DNA of 64,000 nt from Bacteroidota bacterium (GCA_016183775.1 JACPDY010000144.1:6185-70184); one strand, 5' to 3'. Counted from the first letter of the stretch, positions 1 through 11,400 are shown. The notes: generated from the letters alone by a model not told the origin. Numbers and translations: made by a program.

Positions 1-3000
1 AGAGGATATTCAACAGTTCTTGAAAAGCCAACCGGTCAGATTTTTGGAGAATAAGGGGCAGATGTATGATATGACGGGTAAACCGGTTTCTTTTGTATTG
101 TTTAAAGCTTCAGTTCCCGGAATGGATATGTATATTACCGAAAAGGGTCTTACTTATTCATTTGTTAAGTATGAGGAAGATCCTAAGGGTGAAATGCACG
201 CTGAAAAATATGATTCAGCAGGTGAAGAGAACCGGAAAGCTGAATTTCGTCGTGTTGACGTTGAGTTAAAAGGTGGCTCTGTTAAACGTGAAAATATTAT
301 TAAAGAGTTCCCATCGGTCGCTAACTATCATTTTTTCTATAGCCATTGCCAGGATGGAGTTTACGGCGTTAAAGAATACGAAAAAATAACTGTTAAAGAT
401 GTTTACCCTGGTATTGATTGGGTGTTTTACAATTCGGACGAAAAGGGTTTTAAATATGACTTCATTGTTCATCCGGGCGCCAACCCCAGCCTTATCAGAC
501 TTGCATACAGCGGTGCCGACCTTAAAAATATTAATGGTAATATTCAGATATCAACCTCGCTTGGTTTTGTTACGGATAACCGTCCTGTTTCTTATATTGC
601 CGCCACTCGCCAAAGTGTGGAATCTTCATTTGATCTTTCTGAACAAAATGAAATATCTTTTTCCATTGATAATTATTATACCTCTCAAACACTTGTTATC
701 GATCCTCAGATAAATTGGTACACCCGTGGGCAGATAGGGGGGTTTGGAGGAGTACTGGATATGGAAGTGAACCAGGTAAATGGAGATTTTGCTGTGACAG
801 GCTATTACCAGGGAATTGGTTATCCGCTGTTAAATCCGGGTGGAGGCGCATATTTTCAGACCAGCGGTCAGATCATTATAATGTTGTTTAATTCAAAGGG
901 TGTTTTAAAATGGTCTACTTTATATGGGTCTCCATCAGGTAATGCAGATAATTATGGTTATTCTATATGCTTTGATGCGGCCGGAAATATTTTTTTATCG
1001 GGCAGAGGTACTACAGCTGCTAATGGATTTCCACTACAGAATCCGGGTGGCGGAGCTTTTTATCTGGCTAATAATTCCGGGTTTAATACGATTATCTTAA
1101 AGTTCGACCCGAATGGAGTACGTTTATGGGCCACGCATTTCGGTTGGTCCTGGAATACATCCCAGGGTGGTCATGAAGTTGAAGTTGATGCAGCGGGAAA
1201 CCTTTTTGTGGTTGGATCCTGTGGGGGATCAGGTTCTACCACCGCTTTGCCAGTATTAAATCCGGGTGGAGGAGCCTATTTTCAGGGTACAGGATCTGCA
1301 AATGACAATATGTTTATTGCAAAATTCACTAACTCGGGCGTTCTTTTGTGGTCGACCTATTTTGCCGGTAGTGGCGGAAGTTCGGGAGCTGATCTGGCAA
1401 TAGATAATAATGGAAATATTTTTTGCACAGGTTATGCCGGTACAGGATTTCCTGTTCTATCAGCCGGAGGCTATTTCGATAATACGGTAAATGGAATAAG
1501 CGATGTGTTCGTTGTGAAATTCAATAATAACGGAGTTCTGCAATGGTCAACTTATTTTGGAGGTAATGGTAACGCCGATCAGGCCTTCGGAATTGATTGC
1601 GACAATTTGAATAATATAATTATAACCGGGGTAACAAATTCAACGGCCGCTTTTCCGCTTCAAAATCCGGGCGGCGGAGCTTATTACCAGGCAACCAATG
1701 CGGGAGTGAGTGATATTTTTGTTTCCAAATTCACTCCGGCCACAAACCTGTTTTGGTCAACCTACTATGGTGGTGCGGGTGATGATGTTGGTATAATATC
1801 CGCTGTTTTTGTTGGGGATGTTGTTACAGACAATTGCAATAATATATATGTAGTTGGAGCGACCAAAGCGCCCGCCACATTCCCTACGTACAACCCGGGC
1901 TGTGGATCTTTCTACTATAATTATGGCAACCAGGCGATTCTACGTTTTTCCCCGGCGGGAGTGCGGAGCTGGGCAACGTTGTATGGGGAAAGTAATTCTC
2001 CTGCAAGTCAAAGAGCAACAATGACCTGCGCGTATGATAAAAATTCCCGTTGCTTTTATACAGGTGGCGAAATTTATGGTCCTTCCGGACCTAACCCACC
2101 ACCGGTTGATCCGGGCGGTGGAGCTTATTTTAATAGCTATTTTGGTCAAACCGGAGATGATTCATTTATTGCCAAGTTCTCTCCCGATACTCTTAAGTTA
2201 AGTAGTACATTCTCTCCGCCTTCGGTATGTTCATGTAACGGTAGCGCAACAGTGAATATTACCAGTTGCGGAACACCTCCTTATAATTATAAATGGAGTA
2301 ATGGAAGCCAGGCGCTGAATGTTTTAACAGCAAGTAACACCCTTACAGGTCTCTGCTCCGGAAATTATTGGGTTGAAGTAACAGATGCCGCTTGCAATAA
2401 GGATACTGTTTTTTATACTTTTCCCGGAGGACTTTCTTTGAGCAGTACATCCGGAAATGTTATATGCGCAGGATCCTGCAACGGGAGTTCGACCATAACA
2501 CCGGCAGGGGGATCTTCTCCTTACGGCTACTTATGGAGCAATGGTCAAACTGCGCAAACCGCTACCGGACTTTGTACGGGCACTTACTCCGTAGTTGTGA
2601 CGGATGCAGCGAACTGCACTTCGGTTTTGAATGTTACAATAAATAAATTAACCGTCAGTACATCGCAGACCAATGTTTTATGCAGTGGAAATACAACAGG
2701 TAATGCTGTTGTATCGGTTGCGGGTAATACTGGAACCGTAACATACAGCTGGCTGCCTACAGGTCAAACTACAAAGTCAGTAACAGGATTGACTGCCGGA
2801 ATTTATACTGTAAGGATAACTGATGCGAACGGTTGTTCGTTAAATGAAAAAGTATATATTGATGAACCGGAGCCTTTGATCATTACTCCGACCAGTCAGA
2901 ATATCAGCTGCACCACAAGTGGAAGTGCCTCAATAAGTACAAGCGGAGGAATTATACCATATACTTATAGCTGGAACACTGGTCAGACAAGTTCAACTAT

Positions 3001-4009
3001 TTCGTGTCCTACCGCGGGGGACTATACTGTAACTTTGACAGATGCCAATGGATGTACAAGCAGTCAGGTGTTTAACATAACCGGAACTAGTCCCGTTTCA
3101 GCATCATTTACCACTTCATCGACATGCACAGGCAGTTCAGTAACCTTTACCAATACGGGTTCAACGGGCACCTATAGCTGGCTTATTTCACCGTTAAATC
3201 CAAACGTAAGCGGTACTACTACTAACTTTACGTATACTTTTTTAACGGCAGGGAGCTACAGCGTTACACATACAGTTAGTGACGGAACATGTAATAACTC
3301 CATCACAGAAACTATCACAATGATAAATTGTGCCGGTCCTGCAGTAACTGCAACAGGAAATTCAGTATGTTCAGGTAATTGCGCTACAGTGAGCTCCAAT
3401 GGAACAGGAGGCTCGGCTCCATACACCTATTCGTGGAGTAATGGTTCCACGACTCAGAATATTAATCCATGTCCTGTTTCAACCGCCACATACACAGTTA
3501 CAATAAAAGATGCGGGTGGAAATACATCCACTTCAATGGCTGTGGTAACTGTTAATCCTGCTGTGAGCGTGACAACTACTGTAACAAATATAAGTTGTAA
3601 CGGGGGAACAAATGGCAGCGCCAGTGCAAATGTGAGTAGTGGTACACCTGGCTATACATATAGTTGGAGCAACGTGTCGGGTTCCGGGTCAGTGGTTTCA
3701 GGTTTAACTGCCGGAACGTATTCGGTTATGGTAACGGATAGCAAGGGCTGTACTGCCTCATCAACTGTAAATATAGCCGCACCTCCTGCGCTGGCCGGAC
3801 AATTTGCCAAAGGAACTTCCAATTGTGCAGGTTGCGGGTGTAAAGAATGGATAATGATCAATGCTGCCGGTGGAACTAATCCATATTCTTATTCCTGGCC
3901 GGATGGCTATGTGAACAGGTACAAAAATCAACTTTGCCCGGGTGCTTACACTGTAAATATTAAGGATAAAAACGGTTGCAGTGTGAATGTTAACTTTACA
4001 ACGCCATGA
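1..4009 (+). CDS. Large cell-surface protein with SBBP beta-propeller repeats followed by SprB repeats; 5' end lies outside the window; ends inside a repeat with no T9SS C-terminal domain
   Basis: The reading frame is open from nt 2 (..EDIQQFLKSQPVRFLENKGQ), so the start is upstream of the window. There are at least 8 repeats of the NPGGGAYFQ..WSTYFGG type (SBBP/beta-propeller repeat), then at least 10 units of the SprB-repeat type (C..G..tV...GG..PYtYsWsnG......GL.aGtYtV.vtD..GC). The ORF stops (TTP*) in the middle of a SprB unit, and no type A or type B CTD follows. Confidence 0.7.
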   Translation, partial: EDIQQFLKSQPVRFLENKGQMYDMTGKPVSFVLFKASVPGMDMYITEKGLTYSFVKYEEDPKGEMHAEKYDSAGEENRKAEFRRVDVELKGGSVKRENIIKEFPSVANYHFFYSHCQDGVYGVKEYEKITVKDVYPGIDWVFYNSDEKGFKYDFIVHPGANPSLIRLAYSGADLKNINGNIQISTSLGFVTDNRPVSYIAATRQSVESSFDLSEQNEISFSIDNYYTSQTLVIDPQINWYTRGQIGGFGGVLDMEVNQVNGDFAVTGYYQGIGYPLLNPGGGAYFQTSGQIIIMLFNSKGVLKWSTLYGSPSGNADNYGYSICFDAAGNIFLSGRGTTAANGFPLQNPGGGAFYLANNSGFNTIILKFDPNGVRLWATHFGWSWNTSQGGHEVEVDAAGNLFVVGSCGGSGSTTALPVLNPGGGAYFQGTGSANDNMFIAKFTNSGVLLWSTYFAGSGGSSGADLAIDNNGNIFCTGYAGTGFPVLSAGGYFDNTVNGISDVFVVKFNNNGVLQWSTYFGGNGNADQAFGIDCDNLNNIIITGVTNSTAAFPLQNPGGGAYYQATNAGVSDIFVSKFTPATNLFWSTYYGGAGDDVGIISAVFVGDVVTDNCNNIYVVGATKAPATFPTYNPGCGSFYYNYGNQAILRFSPAGVRSWATLYGESNSPASQRATMTCAYDKNSRCFYTGGEIYGPSGPNPPPVDPGGGAYFNSYFGQTGDDSFIAKFSPDTLKLSSTFSPPSVCSCNGSATVNITSCGTPPYNYKWSNGSQALNVLTASNTLTGLCSGNYWVEVTDAACNKDTVFYTFPGGLSLSSTSGNVICAGSCNGSSTITPAGGSSPYGYLWSNGQTAQTATGLCTGTYSVVVTDAANCTSVLNVTINKLTVSTSQTNVLCSGNTTGNAVVSVAGNTGTVTYSWLPTGQTTKSVTGLTAGIYTVRITDANGCSLNEKVYIDEPEPLIITPTSQNISCTTSGSASISTSGGIIPYTYSWNTGQTSSTISCPTAGDYTVTLTDANGCTSSQVFNITGTSPVSASFTTSSTCTGSSVTFTNTGSTGTYSWLISPLNPNVSGTTTNFTYTFLTAGSYSVTHTVSDGTCNNSITETITMINCAGPAVTATGNSVCSGNCATVSSNGTGGSAPYTYSWSNGSTTQNINPCPVSTATYTVTIKDAGGNTSTSMAVVTVNPAVSVTTTVTNISCNGGTNGSASANVSSGTPGYTYSWSNVSGSGSVVSGLTAGTYSVMVTDSKGCTASSTVNIAAPPALAGQFAKGTSNCAGCGCKEWIMINAAGGTNPYSYSWPDGYVNRYKNQLCPGAYTVNIKDKNGCSVNVNFTTP

Positions 4010-4010
4010 G
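3946..4010. repeat. 65-bp perfect direct repeat, copy 1 (identical to 6713-6777); covers the last 20 codons and stop of the cargo gene
   Basis: ttacactgtaaatattaaggataaaaacggttgcagtgtgaatgttaactttacaacgccatgag is identical at both sites. The about 115 nt upstream of each copy are only about 70% identical, so there is a sharp homology boundary. Confidence 0.85.
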
Positions 4011-4191
4011 CTTTTTGGTTTTCCGGTTTTAAAATCGATCAATCTGTCTGCCTGAGGAGGAGCGGAAGCCGATTATTGATTCCGATTTCTATCACTGATC
4101 ACGGATTGCCAGGTCCTCACTACTTCTGTCTTACGCTTGTGCCGTAGCTTCAGCGTAGGAGCACGGCCGAGGAAGTTGCTCTTCGTCTGAT

Positions 4192-4455
4192 TCAGTCGGC
4201 AACTGGCTTGCTCTCAATTTTACTTTTCAGCCATGATATGAAATCAAACATTTCTAAAATCTTTGCTTCAAAGGTGTTTTTAGTGATCGCTTGCAATTCC
4301 ACTTGAAATTCTTTAAAAAATACAATAAGCTCTTTTCGTGAATTTGATTTGGGCAATTTATTCCGAATAAACCTAAGCATAGCACTTTCGGTTTTATACA
4401 ATCGTTTTCTTTTATGCAGAAAGCGATAAGTAGAACGAACGAGATAAGGCAACAA
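4192..4455 (-). CDS. Small basic hypothetical protein (87 aa), possible third gene of the cassette
   Basis: ORF lies 35 nt downstream of the 281-aa gene on the same strand. The N-terminus is Lys/Arg-rich and there is no recognisable domain. A second overlapping ORF in another frame makes the coding status uncertain. Confidence 0.25.
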   Translation of the reverse strand: MLPYLVRSTYRFLHKRKRLYKTESAMLRFIRNKLPKSNSRKELIVFFKEFQVELQAITKNTFEAKILEMFDFISWLKSKIESKPVAD

Positions 4456-4490
4456 TTCATCATTCCCTAATTCATAATGAATTATCAGAT

Positions 4491-5336
4491 TTAATATTCT
4501 TGCAAAGGCAGACTTGTCTGTATTTCTTTTTTAGGATAGAAAACTCCAATGATTACAAATGGATTGGGAGCTCTGCGTGTGTGCCATTCTTTAGTAGTCC
4601 CCAAAAACAAAAAAATATCTTTTTCTTTGAAAAATTCAGTTTCATATCGGTAACGTACTTTTTCCAAAGCCTCTTTTTCATTGCCTTCCGCAGCTCTCAA
4701 GCAATTCCAATATAAACTTCCAATTTCCCAATCTTCAATCATAAGTGTGCTGGAAACTCCTGCATCATCCAGAAAAGTGTAAGAGAATTTATAAGGCAAT
4801 TTTGGAATGAGTATTTCGGGTGATTTATCGGCATCAAATAAATCTTTTTGTTTCCGCAGTTCTTGCCATTCGTTTTTCCATTCTCGCTCATCTTCTTCAA
4901 TTTCAAAAGAGACAAGTTTCGATGGTTTAAATGTTGCAAGCGAAATATTTGAAGGGGCTTTAGAATCTGCCAGCAATTTAGCTTTGTTCGTATATATATT
5001 GGTAAGGCAATATTTTTTACGTTCCTGCCAATTATTTTTAGTGTCGATTTTACCTTCGATTTGAATATTTGAAAAATTATAATCGACAGGAGAGTGACTT
5101 TCTGGACGAAAGTCATCCTTTCTTTTTATCACGTCAAGTTCAATCCAGTTATACTTAAAAGATTCTACCTTCCCATCTTTACGAAGACCAGTTAAAAATT
5201 TTAATGGAACGGGATAAATTCGTATCCATTGCCCATCTTCTGAAACACCAGCAGTACAAACAAGCTCATCGTAGCTTCGAGAAGGCAGGGGATACGTAGC
5301 AACAGTTATTAAGATTTTTTTACGACCAGATTTCAT
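4491..5336 (-). CDS. Uncharacterised 281-aa protein, partner of the Panacea-DUF488 gene (start overlaps upstream stop: ATGA)
   Basis: Clean 281-codon ORF. Its ATG overlaps the TGA/TAA of the upstream gene at nt 5336, consistent with translational coupling. I recognise no motifs. There is no signal peptide or TM segment, so it is predicted cytoplasmic. Confidence 0.6.
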   Translation of the reverse strand: MKSGRKKILITVATYPLPSRSYDELVCTAGVSEDGQWIRIYPVPLKFLTGLRKDGKVESFKYNWIELDVIKRKDDFRPESHSPVDYNFSNIQIEGKIDTKNNWQERKKYCLTNIYTNKAKLLADSKAPSNISLATFKPSKLVSFEIEEDEREWKNEWQELRKQKDLFDADKSPEILIPKLPYKFSYTFLDDAGVSSTLMIEDWEIGSLYWNCLRAAEGNEKEALEKVRYRYETEFFKEKDIFLFLGTTKEWHTRRAPNPFVIIGVFYPKKEIQTSLPLQEY

Positions 5337-6220
5337 TAAATATGTTTTACTTCATATTCAAAGCTTGGCAGTGATTCGATGGCTTCCGCTAAATGCTTTC
5401 TATGACACTGGCATATATTAGCTTCGAAACAAGTTATAGCAATACGTTGATGTTGTTTCAATAGATTTAAAATGGCAGTCTGTGTAGGTTTTGTTTTTGT
5501 AAGGTTATCTTTACGATACACAGCAAACAGCTTATCATAGTCGTTTTGCGAATTTAACTCTTGACGCTGATTAGATTGGATACCTACTTCAGGGAAATGT
5601 AAATATTGTACGCCTACACTTTCACAATATCTTTTGAGCTGATTTTTACTAAAACCATACTTCATGCTTAGTGGATTGTTGCGAACATCCACCAGTATTT
5701 TCACATCGTTTTTAAGAAGGCGGTTTAAATATTCTTCCAGAGAAATACCTTCGTATCCTATAGTAAACAAAACAGTTTTATTACTTTGAGGTTTAGCCTT
5801 GTTTACTTTTTCCAGTTCATCCTTTGTCAAGATGCTTGTAGCCTTTACACTTTTAATAGCATAATATGGGTAGTTGATATATGTATGCTTCATCAGTGCA
5901 GTACTATCCATTTTACCATATAAGGTTTTTATTTCCATTAACCTTTTTTGGTCATCTTCTTTAAGTGCTTTCAGATAATCCGTCTTATCGGCTCTTTTAA
6001 AATGACTATCGGTTTCAGTTAACATACCCTTTTTTACCATCGTGAATAAATCAGCGTAAGCTGAAAAAGAAAAACACCCAAACTTATATGGGACAAAATC
6101 GTATTCGGTTTTTAATTGTTTTATGGTAAAGAGGAAAAGGAGTTTTTGAAGGGAAATTTTCTCCAGCTCACCGCCCAAAAGTTGTATTAAACCTAATATG
6201 ACTTTTCGTCTATAAAACAT
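5336..6220 (-). CDS. Fusion protein: N-terminal Panacea (DUF4065, SocA/PanA-like antitoxin domain) + C-terminal DUF488
   Basis: The N-terminal part (ISLQKLLFLFT...YDFVPYKFGCFSFSAYADL) matches the Panacea consensus (kLQKLLYf...y.a.k.GP). The C-terminal part (TIGYEGISLEEYLNRLLKNDVKILVDVRNNPLSMKYGFSKNQLKRYCESVGVQYLHFPEVG) matches DUF488 (TIGhs..s.eefl..L...gi..lvDVR..P.S..p.f....L...l...Gi.Y.h...LG). An AT-rich promoter-like spacer lies at 6221-6347. Confidence 0.6.
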   Translation of the reverse strand: MFYRRKVILGLIQLLGGELEKISLQKLLFLFTIKQLKTEYDFVPYKFGCFSFSAYADLFTMVKKGMLTETDSHFKRADKTDYLKALKEDDQKRLMEIKTLYGKMDSTALMKHTYINYPYYAIKSVKATSILTKDELEKVNKAKPQSNKTVLFTIGYEGISLEEYLNRLLKNDVKILVDVRNNPLSMKYGFSKNQLKRYCESVGVQYLHFPEVGIQSNQRQELNSQNDYDKLFAVYRKDNLTKTKPTQTAILNLLKQHQRIAITCFEANICQCHRKHLAEAIESLPSFEYEVKHI

Positions 6221-6347
6221 AATAGTATAAAGTTACGGCTTTAATTTGTAAGCATAATCGAGCCTCTGGAATTTATCTACGATAGCCTGTTAATAAAGAC
6301 TTTGCCTGAAAAATGTATTTTAAAAAAATGCACAGGGTATTTCTATT

Positions 6348-6776
6348 ATGACGGGGTACACTATGTCAACCAATTTTCCTGTCTTGGCCGGATTCCAAAT
6401 GTTTTTCGGAGGGGCGGGTGTTGCCGGTACCGGAGATGCCTTCGTTGTTAAGTTTGACCCTGTAGGTAAACGTCTTTGGGCAACTTATTATGGCGGAAAC
6501 GGTGATGTTAAATTAGTACTCATCACAGTTTGTAAAAAAGATAGCTTAACGAAAAGCAATTACATTACAACCACCAAAGGCACTGCCAACTGTACCGGTT
6601 GCGGTTGCAAACAATGGATAATGATTAATGCAACAGGCGGCACAAGCCCTTACTTCTACTCTTGGCCGGATGGGTACGACAAGAGATACAAGAACCAATT
6701 ATGCCCCGGAAATTACACTGTAAATATTAAGGATAAAAACGGTTGCAGTGTGAATGTTAACTTTACAACGCCATGA
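6348..6776 (+). pseudogene. Remnant of a paralog of the SBBP/SprB cargo gene (one degenerate propeller repeat fused to the terminal SprB unit)
   Basis: FPVLAGFQMFFGGAGVAGTGDAFVVKFDPVGKRLWATYYGG resembles an internal SBBP repeat of the first gene. The last about 60 aa are its C-terminal SprB unit, and the last 65 nt are identical. It is opened by an in-frame stop at 6321 and has no signal peptide. Confidence 0.5.
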
Positions 6777-6777
6777 G
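6713..6777. repeat. 65-bp perfect direct repeat, copy 2
   Basis: Identical to 3946-4010. Confidence 0.85.
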
Positions 6778-6779
6778 GG

Positions 6780-7115
6780 CTATTGTTGATCAGGCGCCAG
6801 GATTCCCATTTTATCGGCAAAGTGGCTGCAGTAATCTTTCAGATCATCTGTTATTTTGTCTTCTCCTGTAGCTTTTTTAAAAGTATCGGCCATCGATAAA
6901 AGACTTTGATGGAAAAAACGTTTCATTTCATCGATCGACATATCTTTTGTCCAAAGATCAATACGCAAAGTATTTTGTTCCCTGGCATCCCAAAGAGCGA
7001 TCATTACCGATTTGCTCTGACTTTTTTCGCTCCCATCACTCGTTTCCCAGTTTATTATTGAAGGCAGGTTGTGTTCATCCAGGTTGACTGTAAATTTTAT
7101 CTCTGAGGTCTTCAT
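6780..7115 (-). CDS. gldC: Gliding-motility-associated protein GldC-like (111 aa)
   Basis: Small acidic cytoplasmic protein. EIKFTVNLDEHNLPSIINWETSDG ... LRIDLWTKDMSIDEMKRFFHQSLLSMADTF matches my memory of the GldC family signature. The context is gliding/T9SS genes. Confidence 0.5.
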   Translation of the reverse strand: MKTSEIKFTVNLDEHNLPSIINWETSDGSEKSQSKSVMIALWDAREQNTLRIDLWTKDMSIDEMKRFFHQSLLSMADTFKKATGEDKITDDLKDYCSHFADKMGILAPDQQ

Positions 7116-7400
7116 TTATCTATAACTTTTCTTGTGCTTAACGAAAGTAACAAATTATGTGAATCATTAGAGTTTATATCGAATAAGCTTTTGGCGTTTG
7201 TGCTTTAATCGCAATTGGATTTTGGTCACCAAAGCCTGTCTCCATCGGGCGAACTGATTTATCCGAATGAATTTAAAGCAGTCTAGAAGTTTTTCAACCC
7301 TCTTTTAGAGAATTTTGGGCCTGCCTGACAGGCTTTCGTCATTTGGTGGCATTTTACTCATAGTAAAATTCTTACATTTGTGCATTAAGTAATTATAAAC

Positions 7401-8372
7401 ATGGAAACAAAAGCACCAACGCCCGAAGTAAAACCTGAAGTCCAAAACATTAAGCAGGAGGAGAGGGAGGAAAAAAAATCGGGTAAAAGAATAATTCTTA
7501 TTTTGCTTTTATTGATTTCGTTTGCAGGAAATGGCATTTTGGCGTGGATGTATTGGCAGGAAAGAAACCGTGCAAATATTGTTATCACTGAGAAAGAAAC
7601 AATTATTGTTGAACGCGAGAATGTAAAGGCTGATCTTATTCAATTGCAGGCAGATTATGGGGAATTAAAAACCACCGATGAAAAAATTCAAACAGAATTG
7701 GAAGAGAAAAGGGCTGAAATAGCCCAATTAATTGTAGAAGCCGACAAGCATAAAAATGATGCCTACTTTATTTCGAAACTTAAAAAGGAAACAGAAACAC
7801 TGCGTAAGATCATGCAGGGGTATGTTCATACGATAGATTCTTTGGGTACAATGAATAAAACATTGCTGACCGAGAATGTTCATGTACGCACACAATTTTT
7901 AAGTGAAAAGGAAAAGGCTGCTCAATTATCAAGAGAAAAGGAAGACCTGCAGGGAGTTGTTAATACTGCGTCAATACTAAGGGCAAACGGAACAAAAGCA
8001 ATGGGGGTAAATATTCGCTCAGGCGGAAAAAAGGAATCAGAAACAAAACGGGCGCATAAAACCGATAAAATAAAAGTATCGCTGACTATTGGCGAGAATA
8101 CAATAGCAAAGAAGGGTACCCGCGATGTGTTTCTGCGTATTTTAACTCCTGATGGTAAAGAATTGGCACGTGCGTTGGATGACGCAAATAGCTTTTCTTT
8201 CAGAGGGGTAAGAGGCTTTTTCTGTGCACGTCAAACCATCAATTACGATAATAAAGAAGTTCCACTAGTGCTGTATGCCGAGAATAAAGCCGGCTATATT
8301 CCCGGAAAATATATTGTGGAGGTATATTGTGAACAAGCTTTGATCGGACAGACCACGCTTTTGTTAGAATAG
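7401..8372 (+). CDS. Membrane-anchored coiled-coil protein, hypothetical
   Basis: Lys/Glu-rich N-terminus, one TM helix (IILILLLLISFAGNGILAWMYW), an approximately 150-aa predicted coiled coil, then a C-terminal globular region. No known motif was recognised. Confidence 0.55.
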   Translation: METKAPTPEVKPEVQNIKQEEREEKKSGKRIILILLLLISFAGNGILAWMYWQERNRANIVITEKETIIVERENVKADLIQLQADYGELKTTDEKIQTELEEKRAEIAQLIVEADKHKNDAYFISKLKKETETLRKIMQGYVHTIDSLGTMNKTLLTENVHVRTQFLSEKEKAAQLSREKEDLQGVVNTASILRANGTKAMGVNIRSGGKKESETKRAHKTDKIKVSLTIGENTIAKKGTRDVFLRILTPDGKELARALDDANSFSFRGVRGFFCARQTINYDNKEVPLVLYAENKAGYIPGKYIVEVYCEQALIGQTTLLLE

Positions 8373-8437
8373 TTCAAGGTTCAAAGTTCCTGCAAGGTCG
8401 AAAATTGAACCTTGAACTTTGAACCCGGAACCAAGTA

Positions 8438-11400
8438 TTAAAAATATGCCCTTACCTGTGCCCCACCTGTATGTATGACTTTGGTATTTTCAGATTGGCG
8501 TCCATCGTAATTAATGCTGATCGTTAAATTGTTCGCGAGGTTCTGTTGGTAGGATAATCCCCATGTAATATTTTGTCCTTGTTTTAAACCTTCCATCATC
8601 TCATATGCAATAGGTGAGTTGGGTGACTCGCTGAACGCGATCTGAATGTAATTGGCTTTTGCGTTGAAACTTCCTTTTTGCAAAACGTTATAGCGCATTT
8701 CTGTTCCGTAGTTCTGTTGCGATAGTTTTTGTGCGCCAAGGTCAGGCGTATTTTGTTTATCCACATATTTAAAGACGAGACTGATCCTGAACGAAGTGTT
8801 GGGCTGGTAGCTTATTTTAGGTTCGGCTTCATAATAGTTGATATTGTAATTTCGTGTACTGAAGTATTGTGAGTTATTGTATTTGCTTCCGTTTCTAAGC
8901 CCCGCATTAAAGCTGAATGTACGGGTAATGTTCCAGCGTAATTTTACCTCCCGCGAAACTGCAATACGTGTTTCAAGCCCATTGGTCAGAAGTGATCTGC
9001 CCCGGACTTCCTGGTAACTGAATTCCATACCAAATACAGAACCCAGCTGATTAAAAAAGATTGAGTTGCGCAGCGAAGAGTTCAGCGACTTTAAAGAGCT
9101 GTCGGCGTTGGATCGCCGGAATGGATTATACGCATTTTCAAGATCCTCGTCGGTTGTTTTTTTGTCAACACGATAAGCGGTTTGGTTAGCAAATAATGAA
9201 AAGAATCCTTTCACCCCCTTCTTTCCCGACCAGATAGCTGCCGGTCTGATGTTAAGCGCTTCACTGAATTGGTTGGTATATGCGGTAATTGTTTGATCGG
9301 TGGGTGTATATATTTTTATATAATGCGCCTGGTCACGGAACACGGCCACCTCAAATTCATTCAATTCCTTTATACCATTCCCATTATAATCAGTCCATGC
9401 GTAAACACCTTGTCCGGCAGCTACTTCAAGATAAGAAAATTCTTTTTTCACTTCCTGTCCTGATCCGATCTCGTAAAATGTATTCGTGTTGATGAATCCG
9501 CGCAGCGCGCTGAAGTTGTGCTCAATGCGTCCCAACAATGTTTGATCGGGTTTTATTTTTGATATTAATGTATCCATTATCTCAAGTACGCGGTAAGATG
9601 TTGTTATGTTCACCTGGTTGTTGGGATTGTTAAAAAAGCCCACACTGACAGCGGTTTCCTGAGCAAATGTACTTTTTCTTAAAAGATTGCTACGGGCGCC
9701 ATAGTCGCTGCGTTGTTTATAGCTAAGGTTGTATTTAATTTTCGAGGTGTCTGAATTAACGGCGAAGGCTGTCCATTCAAAGAATTCAAAGCTGTTGTAT
9801 TGCAGGGTATCAGTTGTTTTTTGGCGTACATGGTTGCGTTCGTGCAGTTCTTTTAAGCCCAGTGTAATGAAGCCAAGTCTTTGCGAAACCTTTCCATTAT
9901 GTCGCAGAAAAGTTGAATTGGTAAGACTGTTTGAACTCATCAGGCTTCCATCGAAATTCATGTTAAAACCTTTATTGGTAATGGTTGTCGTTACTCCCTG
10001 CTTAAAGGCATCATACACAGAGCCTTCAAGGAATGAGTTGAAACGATACCCAATGTGAAGCAGTTCCGGTTTAACAAGTGAAAGGCCGGCTCCAATAATA
10101 TGCTGGTCAGAATTCTGGGTGGTGCCTGTACGGTTCCAGTCGCGTTCAAACTCTACCGCCCTGAATCGTTCAATGGGGTTAAAATATTGCTGAACATATT
10201 CATAATTTATGTTTGACACTATTTGTAAATTTTTTCTGCCTTGTTCTGATGAATCATTTTTGTTTCGGAATAATTTAATATTATCAAGCCCCATTTTAAT
10301 ACCGTAACCAATGTCATTCGATTTATCTGATTTCGAAAATGTATTAATATCATTATTTGAGACAGCGGTTTCAAGAGTAAAAGAAGTATTGTTGCCTGTT
10401 TTGTATTCACCACCCAGGGTAACCATTTGCCGCTGCTTGGGTGCGATCAGTTGAATTACCGGTTCGTGATCCCCCTGAGGCTCTCCTGCAATGGGTGGTA
10501 CCCATTGATACACTTTTCCGTTTGCTCCTGAGCTTATTTGACGATAGTTACCCTTTCCCACACGTGAGAATTTAAGTCTGTAATGGGCTTTTGCAGGATC
10601 GGTGGAGTAGAGGTAAATGTCTTTGTAGAGAATTGAACTTATTACAGTGTCCTTTTTTTCATACATTACTTCTGTTGTAGAGAATGCAATGCTGTCTATG
10701 CCCGGAGAATAGGCCAGGTTGGGGTTATCGCCGGCATTTGCCAGAATTTTTTTCTGATCTTCTGTAAGTTGCTGTTGAACGGGCTTGTTTTTGCTGTCCT
10801 GTTCTGAATACACATTGAAGTGTATCCTGAGGTTTCCTTGTTTGTATTCATTGCCAACATGAAACAATGAGCGCGCGAAATTCCTGTCAGAGTACTGAAA
10901 TTCTACCACAATGCGTTTATCTTTTGTGATGAGCCGTTTGGCGGTGAATATAATTTGCGAGGTGTTGTAATCAATTATGTAATCATTCTGCTGGCCGCGT
11001 TGCAGAAGTTGCCCATCGATATATACTTTCTCCGAACCCGACAGAACAATGATGAATTGCTCTCCTTCAGCTCCTCTCAGAAAATAGGGGCCCTGGTTCT
11101 TTTCAATTCCAGGTATAACATTGCGCGCGAACTTTCCCCGCGAAACGGCTGCGCTTCCGGTAATGGTCATTATTCCTGTTTTGGAAGTATCTTTTTGTGC
11201 GGGTCTAGTTTCAAATCGTGTTGTGAAATTCGCACCTTGGGCTTTTTTGAAATAGCGCATGAAATAGCCGGCCTGGCTGGCTATCTGGTAGTCGCCGGCA
11301 ATTAGTTTTGTCTTTTTATCATTTAGTTGGATGAACACTTTGTCGAATTCCTGTAACTGTTGTGTATTTCCTTCAGGTTGAATGGGTATGTTGTTATCAG

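Follow-up and report, generated by a model that had tools for sequence, protein, structure and literature searches.

Which process placed a pair of minus-strand genes between an adhesin gene and gldC in a Bacteroidota bacterium (GCA_016183775.1, JACPDY010000144.1:6185-70184), and what might these genes do? The window analyzed here is the whole 64-kb stretch (64,000 nt), derived from a metagenome-assembled genome (MAG); all coordinates are counted from its first letter, and labels of the type L013 denote fetched comparison loci. An earlier note on this DNA had described a repeat-bounded cassette carrying a possible novel toxin-antitoxin or defense module. The comparative analysis reported below suggests that 4011-6777 is a lineage-specific segment of 2,767 nt, most probably a horizontally acquired insertion. 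The only intact cargo in it is an operon of two translationally coupled genes with their own promoter, the products of which (hereafter M19A and M19B) belong to PDC-M19, a phage defense candidate that had already been catalogued. The features on which the argument depends are the following:

Left direct repeat, 3946-4010, plus strand: last 20 codons of the resident adhesin gene (1329 aa), with its TGA stop and 1 nt.
M19B gene, 4491-5336, minus strand: 281 aa, predicted oligonucleotide/oligosaccharide-binding (OB)-fold nucleic-acid-binding protein; putative effector or toxin.
M19A gene, 5336-6220, minus strand: 294 aa, domain resembling Panacea and the C-terminal domain (CTD) of DarG, followed by DUF488; putative antitoxin or enzyme.
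AT-rich spacer with the operon promoter, 6221-6347, minus strand: 30% GC, variant -7 box TAACTTTA at 6235-6228.
Right direct repeat, 6713-6777, plus strand: identical to 3946-4010, 3 nt from the gldC stop codon.

Probable Origin of the Repeat-Bounded Segment

The two 65-nt segments are identical and represent the sole copies within the window, and no match of this kind was obtained in 100 shuffles (0/100). Each copy corresponds to the last 20 codons plus the stop of an adhesin-tail open reading frame (ORF), the two ORFs ending at 4009 and 6776, and the homology around the repeats totals 204 nt (3807-4010 versus 6574-6777, 82% identity overall). In the 139 nt located 5' of the identical tract, the identity is 73%, with 37 differences, 27 of which fall at third codon positions; among the 45 codons of this arm, 21 exhibit synonymous differences only and 8 exhibit non-synonymous ones, and the proteins encoded by the two tail copies share 86% of their residues over 66 aa. 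Outside the 204 nt, homology is absent on both sides (27% ungapped identity upstream and 32% downstream). Hence, the repeats, their coding content and the drop of homology upstream of them, previously estimated at about 70%, are all as the earlier note had described them. Since the chance of finding 65 consecutive matches given 73% identity is about 2e-9, the sharp boundary of the repeat can be considered real, and the sequence comparison indicates that the tract marks a recombination or gene-conversion event between two long-diverged adhesin tails. The searches of metagenome and genome contigs revealed no donor and no second copy of the repeat or of the non-coding head of the segment; indeed, neither the exact 64-nt repeat sequence nor a 24-mer from the head matched any metagenome contig, and the degenerate back-translation of the tail peptide gave no match in genome contigs.

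The use of GldC as a query over species-representative genomes yielded a 7.7-kb contig (L013) of a Bacteroidia MAG, the GldC protein of which is 96% identical to that of the window. Positions 1-4531 of L013 align with window 11110-6574 at 85% identity, and positions 4356-7674 with window 3982-661 at 80%; the 176-nt overlap between the two alignments is the repeated tail, which implies that the adhesin gene of L013 passes straight into gldC with a single tail. In other words, window 661-11110 and L013 are collinear, the only exception being the adhesin tail of L013, which is present in one copy and directly abuts gldC. Base by base, it is the left copy of the window to which this single tail is orthologous in the diverged 139-nt part (3807-3945), and the sequence lying 3' of the right repeat matches L013 onward, bar a 37-nt indel. 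Direct repeats and a one-copy empty site in a relative, as expected for an integrative element, are thus both present; the empty site had been suggested as a check, and its finding supports the previous description of a discrete cassette. Moreover, in a set of 80 related gldC loci, M19A, M19B and the 87-aa ORF that follows them are all missing (0/80).

According to the idea that we favor, the 65-nt identity tract of the adhesin tail would have mediated the joining of the insert to the chromosome, at a position between gldC and the adhesin stop. A homology-driven event seems likelier than a site-specific integration, because the right arm is itself a diverged adhesin fragment and because a recombinase is lacking both in the insert and in the collinear flanks: no integrase or recombinase ORF occurs in 4011-6777, and the flanks (661-11110) are collinear core DNA. 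The event might have been a Campbell-type integration of a circle or, alternatively, a homology-facilitated recombination with a short conversion tract. It is improbable, in our opinion, that the repeats are the attL and attR sites of a site-specific integrative element whose integrase was lost or which was mobilized in trans, as in a cis-mobilizable element (CIME). The one-copy empty site in a related genome and the sharp-edged identity tract, which spans the 3' end of a gene, stop codon included, do fit such an element, given that the att cores of islands rebuilding their target gene typically cover the gene 3' end; however, besides the absence of a recombinase, the arm of the right repeat, with its SBBP piece and its 139 nt at 73% identity, is itself homologous to the target gene and diverged from it, as a homology-driven event would yield, the other M19 loci share neither the flanking sequence nor the repeat, and the searches of other genomes and metagenomes did not return the 65-nt repeat. 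Two points weigh against the insertion itself. The opposite polarity, i.e., a deletion in the L013 lineage via repeat recombination, is the less probable alternative, although the related gldC loci offer no outgroup in which the adhesin adjoins gldC. In addition, the sequence being that of a MAG with a 65-nt repeat, an assembler might in principle thread a separate circular molecule into the chromosome at that repeat.

The Two-Gene Operon and Its Family

The arrangement of the two minus-strand genes and of the 87-aa ORF downstream agrees with that previously given, the TAA stop of the M19A gene overlapping the M19B ATG by 1 nt. When the window was compared by BLASTN with five independent loci carrying the pair, homology was confined to 4517-6221, that is, to the two coding sequences; those five loci show no homology to the head, 87-aa ORF, spacer or adhesin fragment of the window. 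The GC content is 33-35% in the two genes, 30% in the spacer, 48.6% in the head and 40.5% in the whole window, and the low value of the two genes also speaks for an insertion. The alignment of the 160 nt upstream of the first gene in nine loci revealed that seven of these (L001, L004, L005, L009, L011, L012 and L093) have the Bacteroidota -7 box (TAnnTTTG) at a distance of 4-5 nt from the ATG, which implies a leaderless or near-leaderless transcript; in the window, the variant box TAACTTTA is located 7 nt upstream of the M19A ATG. No inverted repeats, and no operator built on them, were found in the promoter spacer, and scans for sigma-70 promoters and terminators performed no better than on shuffled sequence. 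Because homology is limited to the two genes and the -7 box, the mobile unit appears to consist of a minimal promoter and two translationally coupled genes. The order of the genes, with the putative antitoxin first, and the overlapping stop and start are typical of type II toxin-antitoxin pairs.

Both proteins match PADLOC profiles virtually end to end. M19A is recognized by PDC-M19A (PDLC04505) with an E value of 8.7e-130, residues 1-294 aligning with positions 1-294 of 294, and M19B by PDC-M19B (PDLC04508) with an E value of 2.5e-115, residues 5-276 aligning with positions 3-268 of 269; the A and B genes follow one another on one strand (5336-6220 and 4491-5336, minus). The window pair therefore has the gene order, strand and adjacency of PDC-M19, with no family-level difference, and departs from it only in its location, since it is solitary between the adhesin gene and gldC and not embedded within a restriction-modification (RM), BREX or DISARM locus. 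In the accessible parts of the work that defines them (Payne, Hughes, Fineran & Jackson, bioRxiv 10.1101/2024.01.29.577857), the PDC systems are presented as 145 untested phage defense candidates, predicted on the basis of homologues embedded inside BREX, DISARM or Type I RM loci; there, PDC-M19 is the cassette FAM_02799>>FAM_02993 of the supplement, listed with the number 174, and neither an experimental validation nor a mechanism is given for it.

The family is very large. Clustering at 90% leaves more than 6,000 relatives for each protein, distributed among bacteria, archaea, plasmids and phages, and PHROG families exist for both; relatives hold 70-84% identity across different Bacteroidota lineages, the closest ones being 84% identical to M19B and 83% identical to M19A. 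With these relatives, and with both proteins covered by existing profiles, the module cannot be called novel, as it had been: the window pair is an already catalogued candidate, its domain families were named in earlier computational work, and it does not represent a new kind of system.

M19A: A DarG-Like Domain Joined to DUF488

The AlphaFold model of M19A (pLDDT 91, pTM 0.87) confidently predicts a winged helix over residues ~1-80, helices at 88-141 and, from 150 to 294, a Rossmann-like fold for the DUF488 domain. In structure searches, the N-terminal domain (~1-145) matched best the DarG of the DarT-DarG complex, clearly ahead of the other matches and over the longest alignment; the matched domain is a toxin-inhibiting and not a DNA-binding one. 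Direct membership of the Pfam family SocA_Panacea (PF13274, DUF4065; gathering threshold 25.7 bits) had to be rejected, for neither M19A nor its N-terminal 149 aa gave a match even at E<=10, and none of 120 close M19A homologues is annotated with PF13274 (0/120). A deep profile search with the N-terminal domain gathered 1,198 cluster representatives. Sub-threshold Panacea matches recur among 87 diverse full-length relatives (12/87, best E 4e-4) and among the M19A-type partners encoded by viruses (4/10, at most 22.3 bits versus the 25.7-bit cut-off, over nearly the whole model), and the motif LQKL..DF.P..YG..S of the M19A family profile aligns with DarG. This is in agreement with the homology reported between DUF4065 proteins and the DarT-inhibiting CTD of DarG (PMC13621843). 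On the basis of the profiles and of the predicted structure, the N-terminal domain can be assigned to the Panacea/DarG-CTD superfamily, at the level of distant homology and shared fold only. The Panacea domain previously attributed to M19A is thus retained for the superfamily and withdrawn for the Pfam family.

The assignment of the other half of the fusion to DUF488 stands, the Pfam model (PF04343) matching residues 161-280 with 87.5 bits versus a 22.2-bit cut-off. Among the 87 diverse relatives, 85 match DUF488 and 78 match DUF488-N3a (E<0.01, best 8.4e-10); the window protein itself scores 21.5 bits on DUF488-N3a (PF22751), versus a 27-bit cut-off. Residues C264, E266, C272, H273 and R274 are at least 90% conserved in the same 87 relatives, as are other polar residues, and the fold of the domain resembles that of dual-specificity and protein tyrosine phosphatase (PTP)-type phosphatases, so that M19A shares with the DUF488 branch of the rhodanese-phosphatase superfamily both the C..E..CHR motif and the phosphatase-type fold. 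Given the conservation of C264-x-E266...C272-H273-R274 and of the accompanying polar residues, it is probable that this Cys-phosphatase-like domain is catalytically active. Burroughs and Aravind are said to have placed DUF488, in 2023, in a clade with DUF4326 and RapZ-C, and reportedly predicted a role in DNA-end processing in conflict systems for RapZ-C, DUF488 and DUF4326 enzymes. We know of no DUF488 protein with a demonstrated activity, and the family name gives, therefore, no function.

The comparison with the two closest known systems reveals both likenesses and differences. M19A shares with DarTG the fold of the toxin-binding CTD of DarG; however, the order of the domains is reversed, DUF488 replaces the DarG macrodomain, and a search for macrodomain or NADAR elements left M19A with a DarG-CTD-like domain and DUF488 only. 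The NCBIfam DarG model gives 12.9 bits on M19A versus a 250-bit cut-off, and the top matches of M19B, for which an OB fold is predicted, include no ADP-ribosyltransferase fold such as that of DarT. PanA-PanT pairs are similar in that the M19A N-terminus is distantly homologous to Panacea, a putative antitoxin lies upstream of and is coupled to an unrelated partner, and both systems are widespread in bacteria, archaea and phages; they differ in that M19A gets no SocA_Panacea match. In the accessible part of the PanA-PanT work, the known PanA extensions are N-terminal (HTH, PAD1) and not C-terminal enzymes, and no OB-fold PanT is mentioned there (Kurata et al. 2022, PMC8832971). Sequence-profile searches of the PDB with the M19A and M19B families gave no significant matches.

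M19B: A Predicted OB-Fold Partner

The structure search suggested for the unnamed 281-aa partner was informative. The fold searches with M19B returned one or two OB folds of the type that binds single-stranded DNA (ssDNA), the top matches being the ssDNA-end binders TEBP-alpha, Teb1 and Stn1; M19B is therefore probably an OB-fold nucleic-acid-binding protein, for which a tandem OB arrangement is predicted. In an alignment embedding bacterial, archaeal and phage sequences, the invariant residues are R39, Y41, P42, K61, D75, R77, E79, S80, W103, Q163, D202-W203-E204 and G246. The presence of a fixed cluster of acidic and basic residues would be more in keeping with a site for catalysis or for a ligand than with a protein that binds ssDNA passively.

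The assignment of M19B to a named Pfam family is less clear. The dual OB-containing family DuOB (PF22557, 27-bit threshold) gave no match to the window protein, matched none of ten viral homologues (0/10) and, among 13 divergent homologues, matched weakly two only (18.6 and 20.4 bits), on which account we regard DuOB membership as tentative. One viral homologue (L101, 6004-6849) matches DUF2396 over residues 4-74 with 21.1 bits versus a 21-bit cut-off, a match that may link the N-terminal OB region of M19B to that family.

Genomic Contexts and Partner Variation

Genes of the M19A and M19B type are adjacent and co-oriented in each of the nine fetched loci of Bacteroidota and in 14 of the 15 viral ones; the upstream partner is a DUF488 protein of about 300 aa with the M19A architecture in nine of ten viral loci scanned. 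The neighborhood of the pair, which the earlier note had suggested inspecting for defense islands, is in part of this kind: the pair lies beside ABC-3C/DUF2326, AbiH and Eco57I-helicase genes in L004, directly after a Type ISP restriction enzyme in L009 and L010, and among GmrSD, HEPN and MmeI fragments in L011. In L002, it is embedded in a conjugative element, between ArdC/RadC and relaxase/coupling protein genes. Relatives of M19B also occur on 22 plasmids of cyanobacteria, proteobacteria, actinobacteria and Sulfolobales, 10 of which are conjugative, in seven Gordonia phage records and in 18 IMG/VR viral contigs; of the two such contigs inspected, one carries RecT and a replication initiator, and the other terminase and portal genes. 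These contexts make the previously proposed toxin-antitoxin or defense role plausible. A housekeeping role was also considered and rejected, the pair being absent from 80/80 related gldC loci and its contexts elsewhere being unrelated to one another.

The partner of M19B is not always the same. On the Saccharolobus shibatae conjugative plasmid pBEU9E1 (L007, 3939-5864), a fusion of ParB_N, HTH_ParB and DUF488 is located directly upstream of an archaeal M19B homologue, which indicates that DUF488 and the OB-fold protein are partners in archaea as well as in bacteria, the N-terminal module being a different one; CTP binding has been reported for a ParB-DUF488-HTH fusion from archaea. On a plasmid of Pseudomonas sp. 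CIP-10 (L008, 6079-8744), a short stand-alone DUF488-N3a gene (35.3 bits, above the cut-off) is convergent with an M19B homologue and overlaps its 3' end; a gene for a HEPN/Toprim-associated protein adjoins this pair. In Gordonia phage Eviarto (L006, 4024-5828, genes 44 and 43), an "immunity repressor" with HTH_31 and without DUF488 is encoded in translational coupling with a full-length M19B homologue (hhalign probability 99%); the pair lies in an immunity cassette beside the integrase, a position that makes expression during lysogeny probable. The possibility that this repressor (gp44) is a hidden M19A/DUF488 homologue was discarded, BLASTP and hhalign being both negative. Overall, the Panacea-like domain seems to be one of several partner modules.

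Resident Flanks and Remnants within the Insert

The remaining features of the region are the following:

Adhesin gene, resident flank, 20-4009, plus strand: intact, 1329 aa, Pfam matches to DUF7948, SBBP and SprB repeats.
Non-coding head of the insert, 4011-4191, no strand assigned: 48.6% GC, absent from L013 and from the other M19 loci.
87-aa ORF, 4192-4455, minus strand: 35 nt after the M19B gene, putative 3' fragment of a BT2802-family gene.
Adhesin fragment, foreign or paralogous, 6348-6712, plus strand: SBBP-repeat piece, junction and diverged terminal SprB-like unit.
gldC, resident flank, 6780-7115, minus strand: intact, TIGR03515 GldC match with E 1.4e-40, protein 96% identical to that of L013.

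The adhesin fragment reads in frame into the right repeat, forming a 142-aa ORF (6348-6776). It is 40-47% identical to the SBBP units at aa 470-603 of the resident gene, and its tail shares 86% of the protein and 73% of the DNA sequence with the resident tail, the changes being mostly synonymous. The resident adhesin shares with L013 80% of its DNA sequence and 92% of its protein sequence over aa 215-700, and the tail of L013 resembles the left copy and not that of the fragment. Judging from these comparisons, the insert brought with it the 142-aa ORF, a foreign fragment, and the cell-surface locus, formerly thought to be disrupted, has retained both the adhesin gene and gldC intact.

The 87-aa ORF, previously regarded as a third gene of the operon, does not appear to belong to it. 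It matches only positions 417-499 of the 502 positions of NCBIfam NF058569 (BT2802 "ribose utilization protein", E 7.8e-15), it retrieved no relative but itself among 5.8 billion proteins, and it is absent from all other M19 loci examined; it is thus probably a gene fragment brought in with the insert and not a component of the module. The GC-rich non-coding head described before does exist, and lies outside the conserved unit. It exhibits no homology to other M19 loci or to other parts of the window. An Rfam scan of 3000-8000, head included, revealed nothing, and RNA folding of both strands nothing unusual (z about 0.5), for which reason the idea that the head encodes a non-coding RNA was dropped.

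The 1329-aa protein embeds DUF7948, SBBP beta-propeller repeats, seven SprB repeats and PKD, and ends in an unusual Cys-rich terminal unit (..CAGCGCKEW..NVNFTTP); no C-terminal sorting domain of the type IX secretion system is recognizable in it, a weak internal Por_Secre_tail signal (aa 892-947) being the only one of this kind. The convergent adhesin-side ORF and gldC almost touch in the window, the distance between the adhesin stop and the gldC stop being 3 nt (6777-6782) versus about 41 nt in L013 (about 4286-4332). Lastly, GldC is a Bacteroidota gliding-motility protein, and GldC contigs labeled as Gallionella, Nitrotoga, Nitrosomonadales or Pseudomonadota MAGs (L031, L034, L037, L038, L040, L043, L044, L046, L050, L051, L055 and L078) probably come from Bacteroidota of iron-rich or groundwater communities and were mis-binned.

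Possible Function of the Module

A remaining question concerns the role that M19A and M19B might play together. We consider the chances about even that PDC-M19 is a toxin-antitoxin-like defense module with a DarTG-like logic. M19B would be a toxic, nucleic-acid-directed effector, endowed with OB folds of the ssDNA-binding type and a conserved acidic/basic pocket, and M19A might restrain it in two ways, as DarG does with DarT: the Panacea/DarG-CTD-like domain would bind M19B directly, possibly filling its ssDNA groove, and the DUF488 domain would act on a nucleotide or on the end of a nucleic acid, removing or reversing a product linked through phosphate. This balance would be upset by phage infection, which would free M19B onto replication intermediates and abort the infection. 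A more specific version of this idea, in which PDC-M19 would form a class of its own among defense systems, is unlikely to hold in all its parts: the tandem-OB M19B, through an active site not recognized before and formed by D75/R77/E79/S80 and D202-W203-E204, would modify or cleave ssDNA, and this chemistry would be reversed by a DUF488 domain tethered to it via an ssDNA-mimicking Panacea/DarG-CTD-like domain. Several observations tell against a toxin-antitoxin-like function. The literature search turned up no experiment on PDC-M19, nor any naming of it, and three of the nine Bacteroidota loci (L001, L005 and L012) have neither defense nor mobile-element neighbors. Furthermore, since the N-terminal module of M19A is swapped in Saccharolobus and missing in Pseudomonas, the link between DUF488 and M19B can be seen as the oldest one; the conserved partnership seems to be that of DUF488, and not of Panacea, with M19B, and such a variation of partners fits a two-subunit enzyme as well as a toxin-antitoxin pair.

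Indeed, the two proteins might constitute a non-toxic two-subunit system for the processing of nucleic-acid ends, in which M19B would target or sense ssDNA or DNA ends and recruit M19A, whose DUF488 domain would be the effector, taking a phosphate or sugar-phosphate off the termini of invading DNA or RNA or transferring it, and whose winged helix would bind DNA or regulate the operon. We regard this as rather unlikely, although it would explain why the pairing survives a change of the N-terminus (ParB_N-HTH-DUF488 in Saccharolobus, stand-alone DUF488-N3a in Pseudomonas) and would suit the ssDNA-end binders found as top folds of M19B; the best match of the M19A N-terminus is, in fact, a toxin-inhibiting domain, the upstream partner, the overlapping stop and start and the tight 1:1 coupling follow the toxin-antitoxin pattern, and a pure targeting subunit would not need the invariant acidic cluster of M19B. 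It is less probable still that the module serves mobile elements, either as an addiction system (post-segregational killing) or as an establishment or anti-defense function guarding incoming ssDNA, the window copy being then the remnant of a decayed element. The copy in an integrative and conjugative element between ArdC/RadC and relaxase/coupling protein (L002), the 22 plasmids (10 conjugative), the Saccharolobus conjugative plasmid, the temperate Gordonia phages with the gene beside the repressor, the IMG/VR prophages, the resemblance of an OB-fold ssDNA binder to the SSB-type functions of plasmid leading regions and the gene debris around the window insert would all be accounted for. Nevertheless, several chromosomal copies lie in classical defense islands or by restriction enzymes, with mobile-element genes absent nearby, PDC-M19 was first defined by its embedding within RM, BREX or DISARM loci, the window insert is a solitary 2.8-kb one in collinear core DNA, and both its reading frames are intact despite 84% (M19B) and 83% (M19A) identity to their closest relatives.

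Coming back to the DarTG-like logic, the window offers a minimal natural example of PDC-M19, consisting of two genes and a -7 promoter box, and the matched empty site in L013 indicates that the unit moves as a small cassette. The insertion thus represents a clean case of a very small defense-type cassette that would have been gained via homology in the tail of a gene. The module is very common and contains the widespread DUF488 domain; a DarTG-like logic in which a phosphatase-like enzyme is paired with a partner of the OB-fold type provides both this large family and DUF488 with a testable mechanism. If the more specific version, with an enzymatic antitoxin, proved true, it would give the first biochemical function for DUF488 and, after DarG, the second case of neutralization through both binding and reversal.

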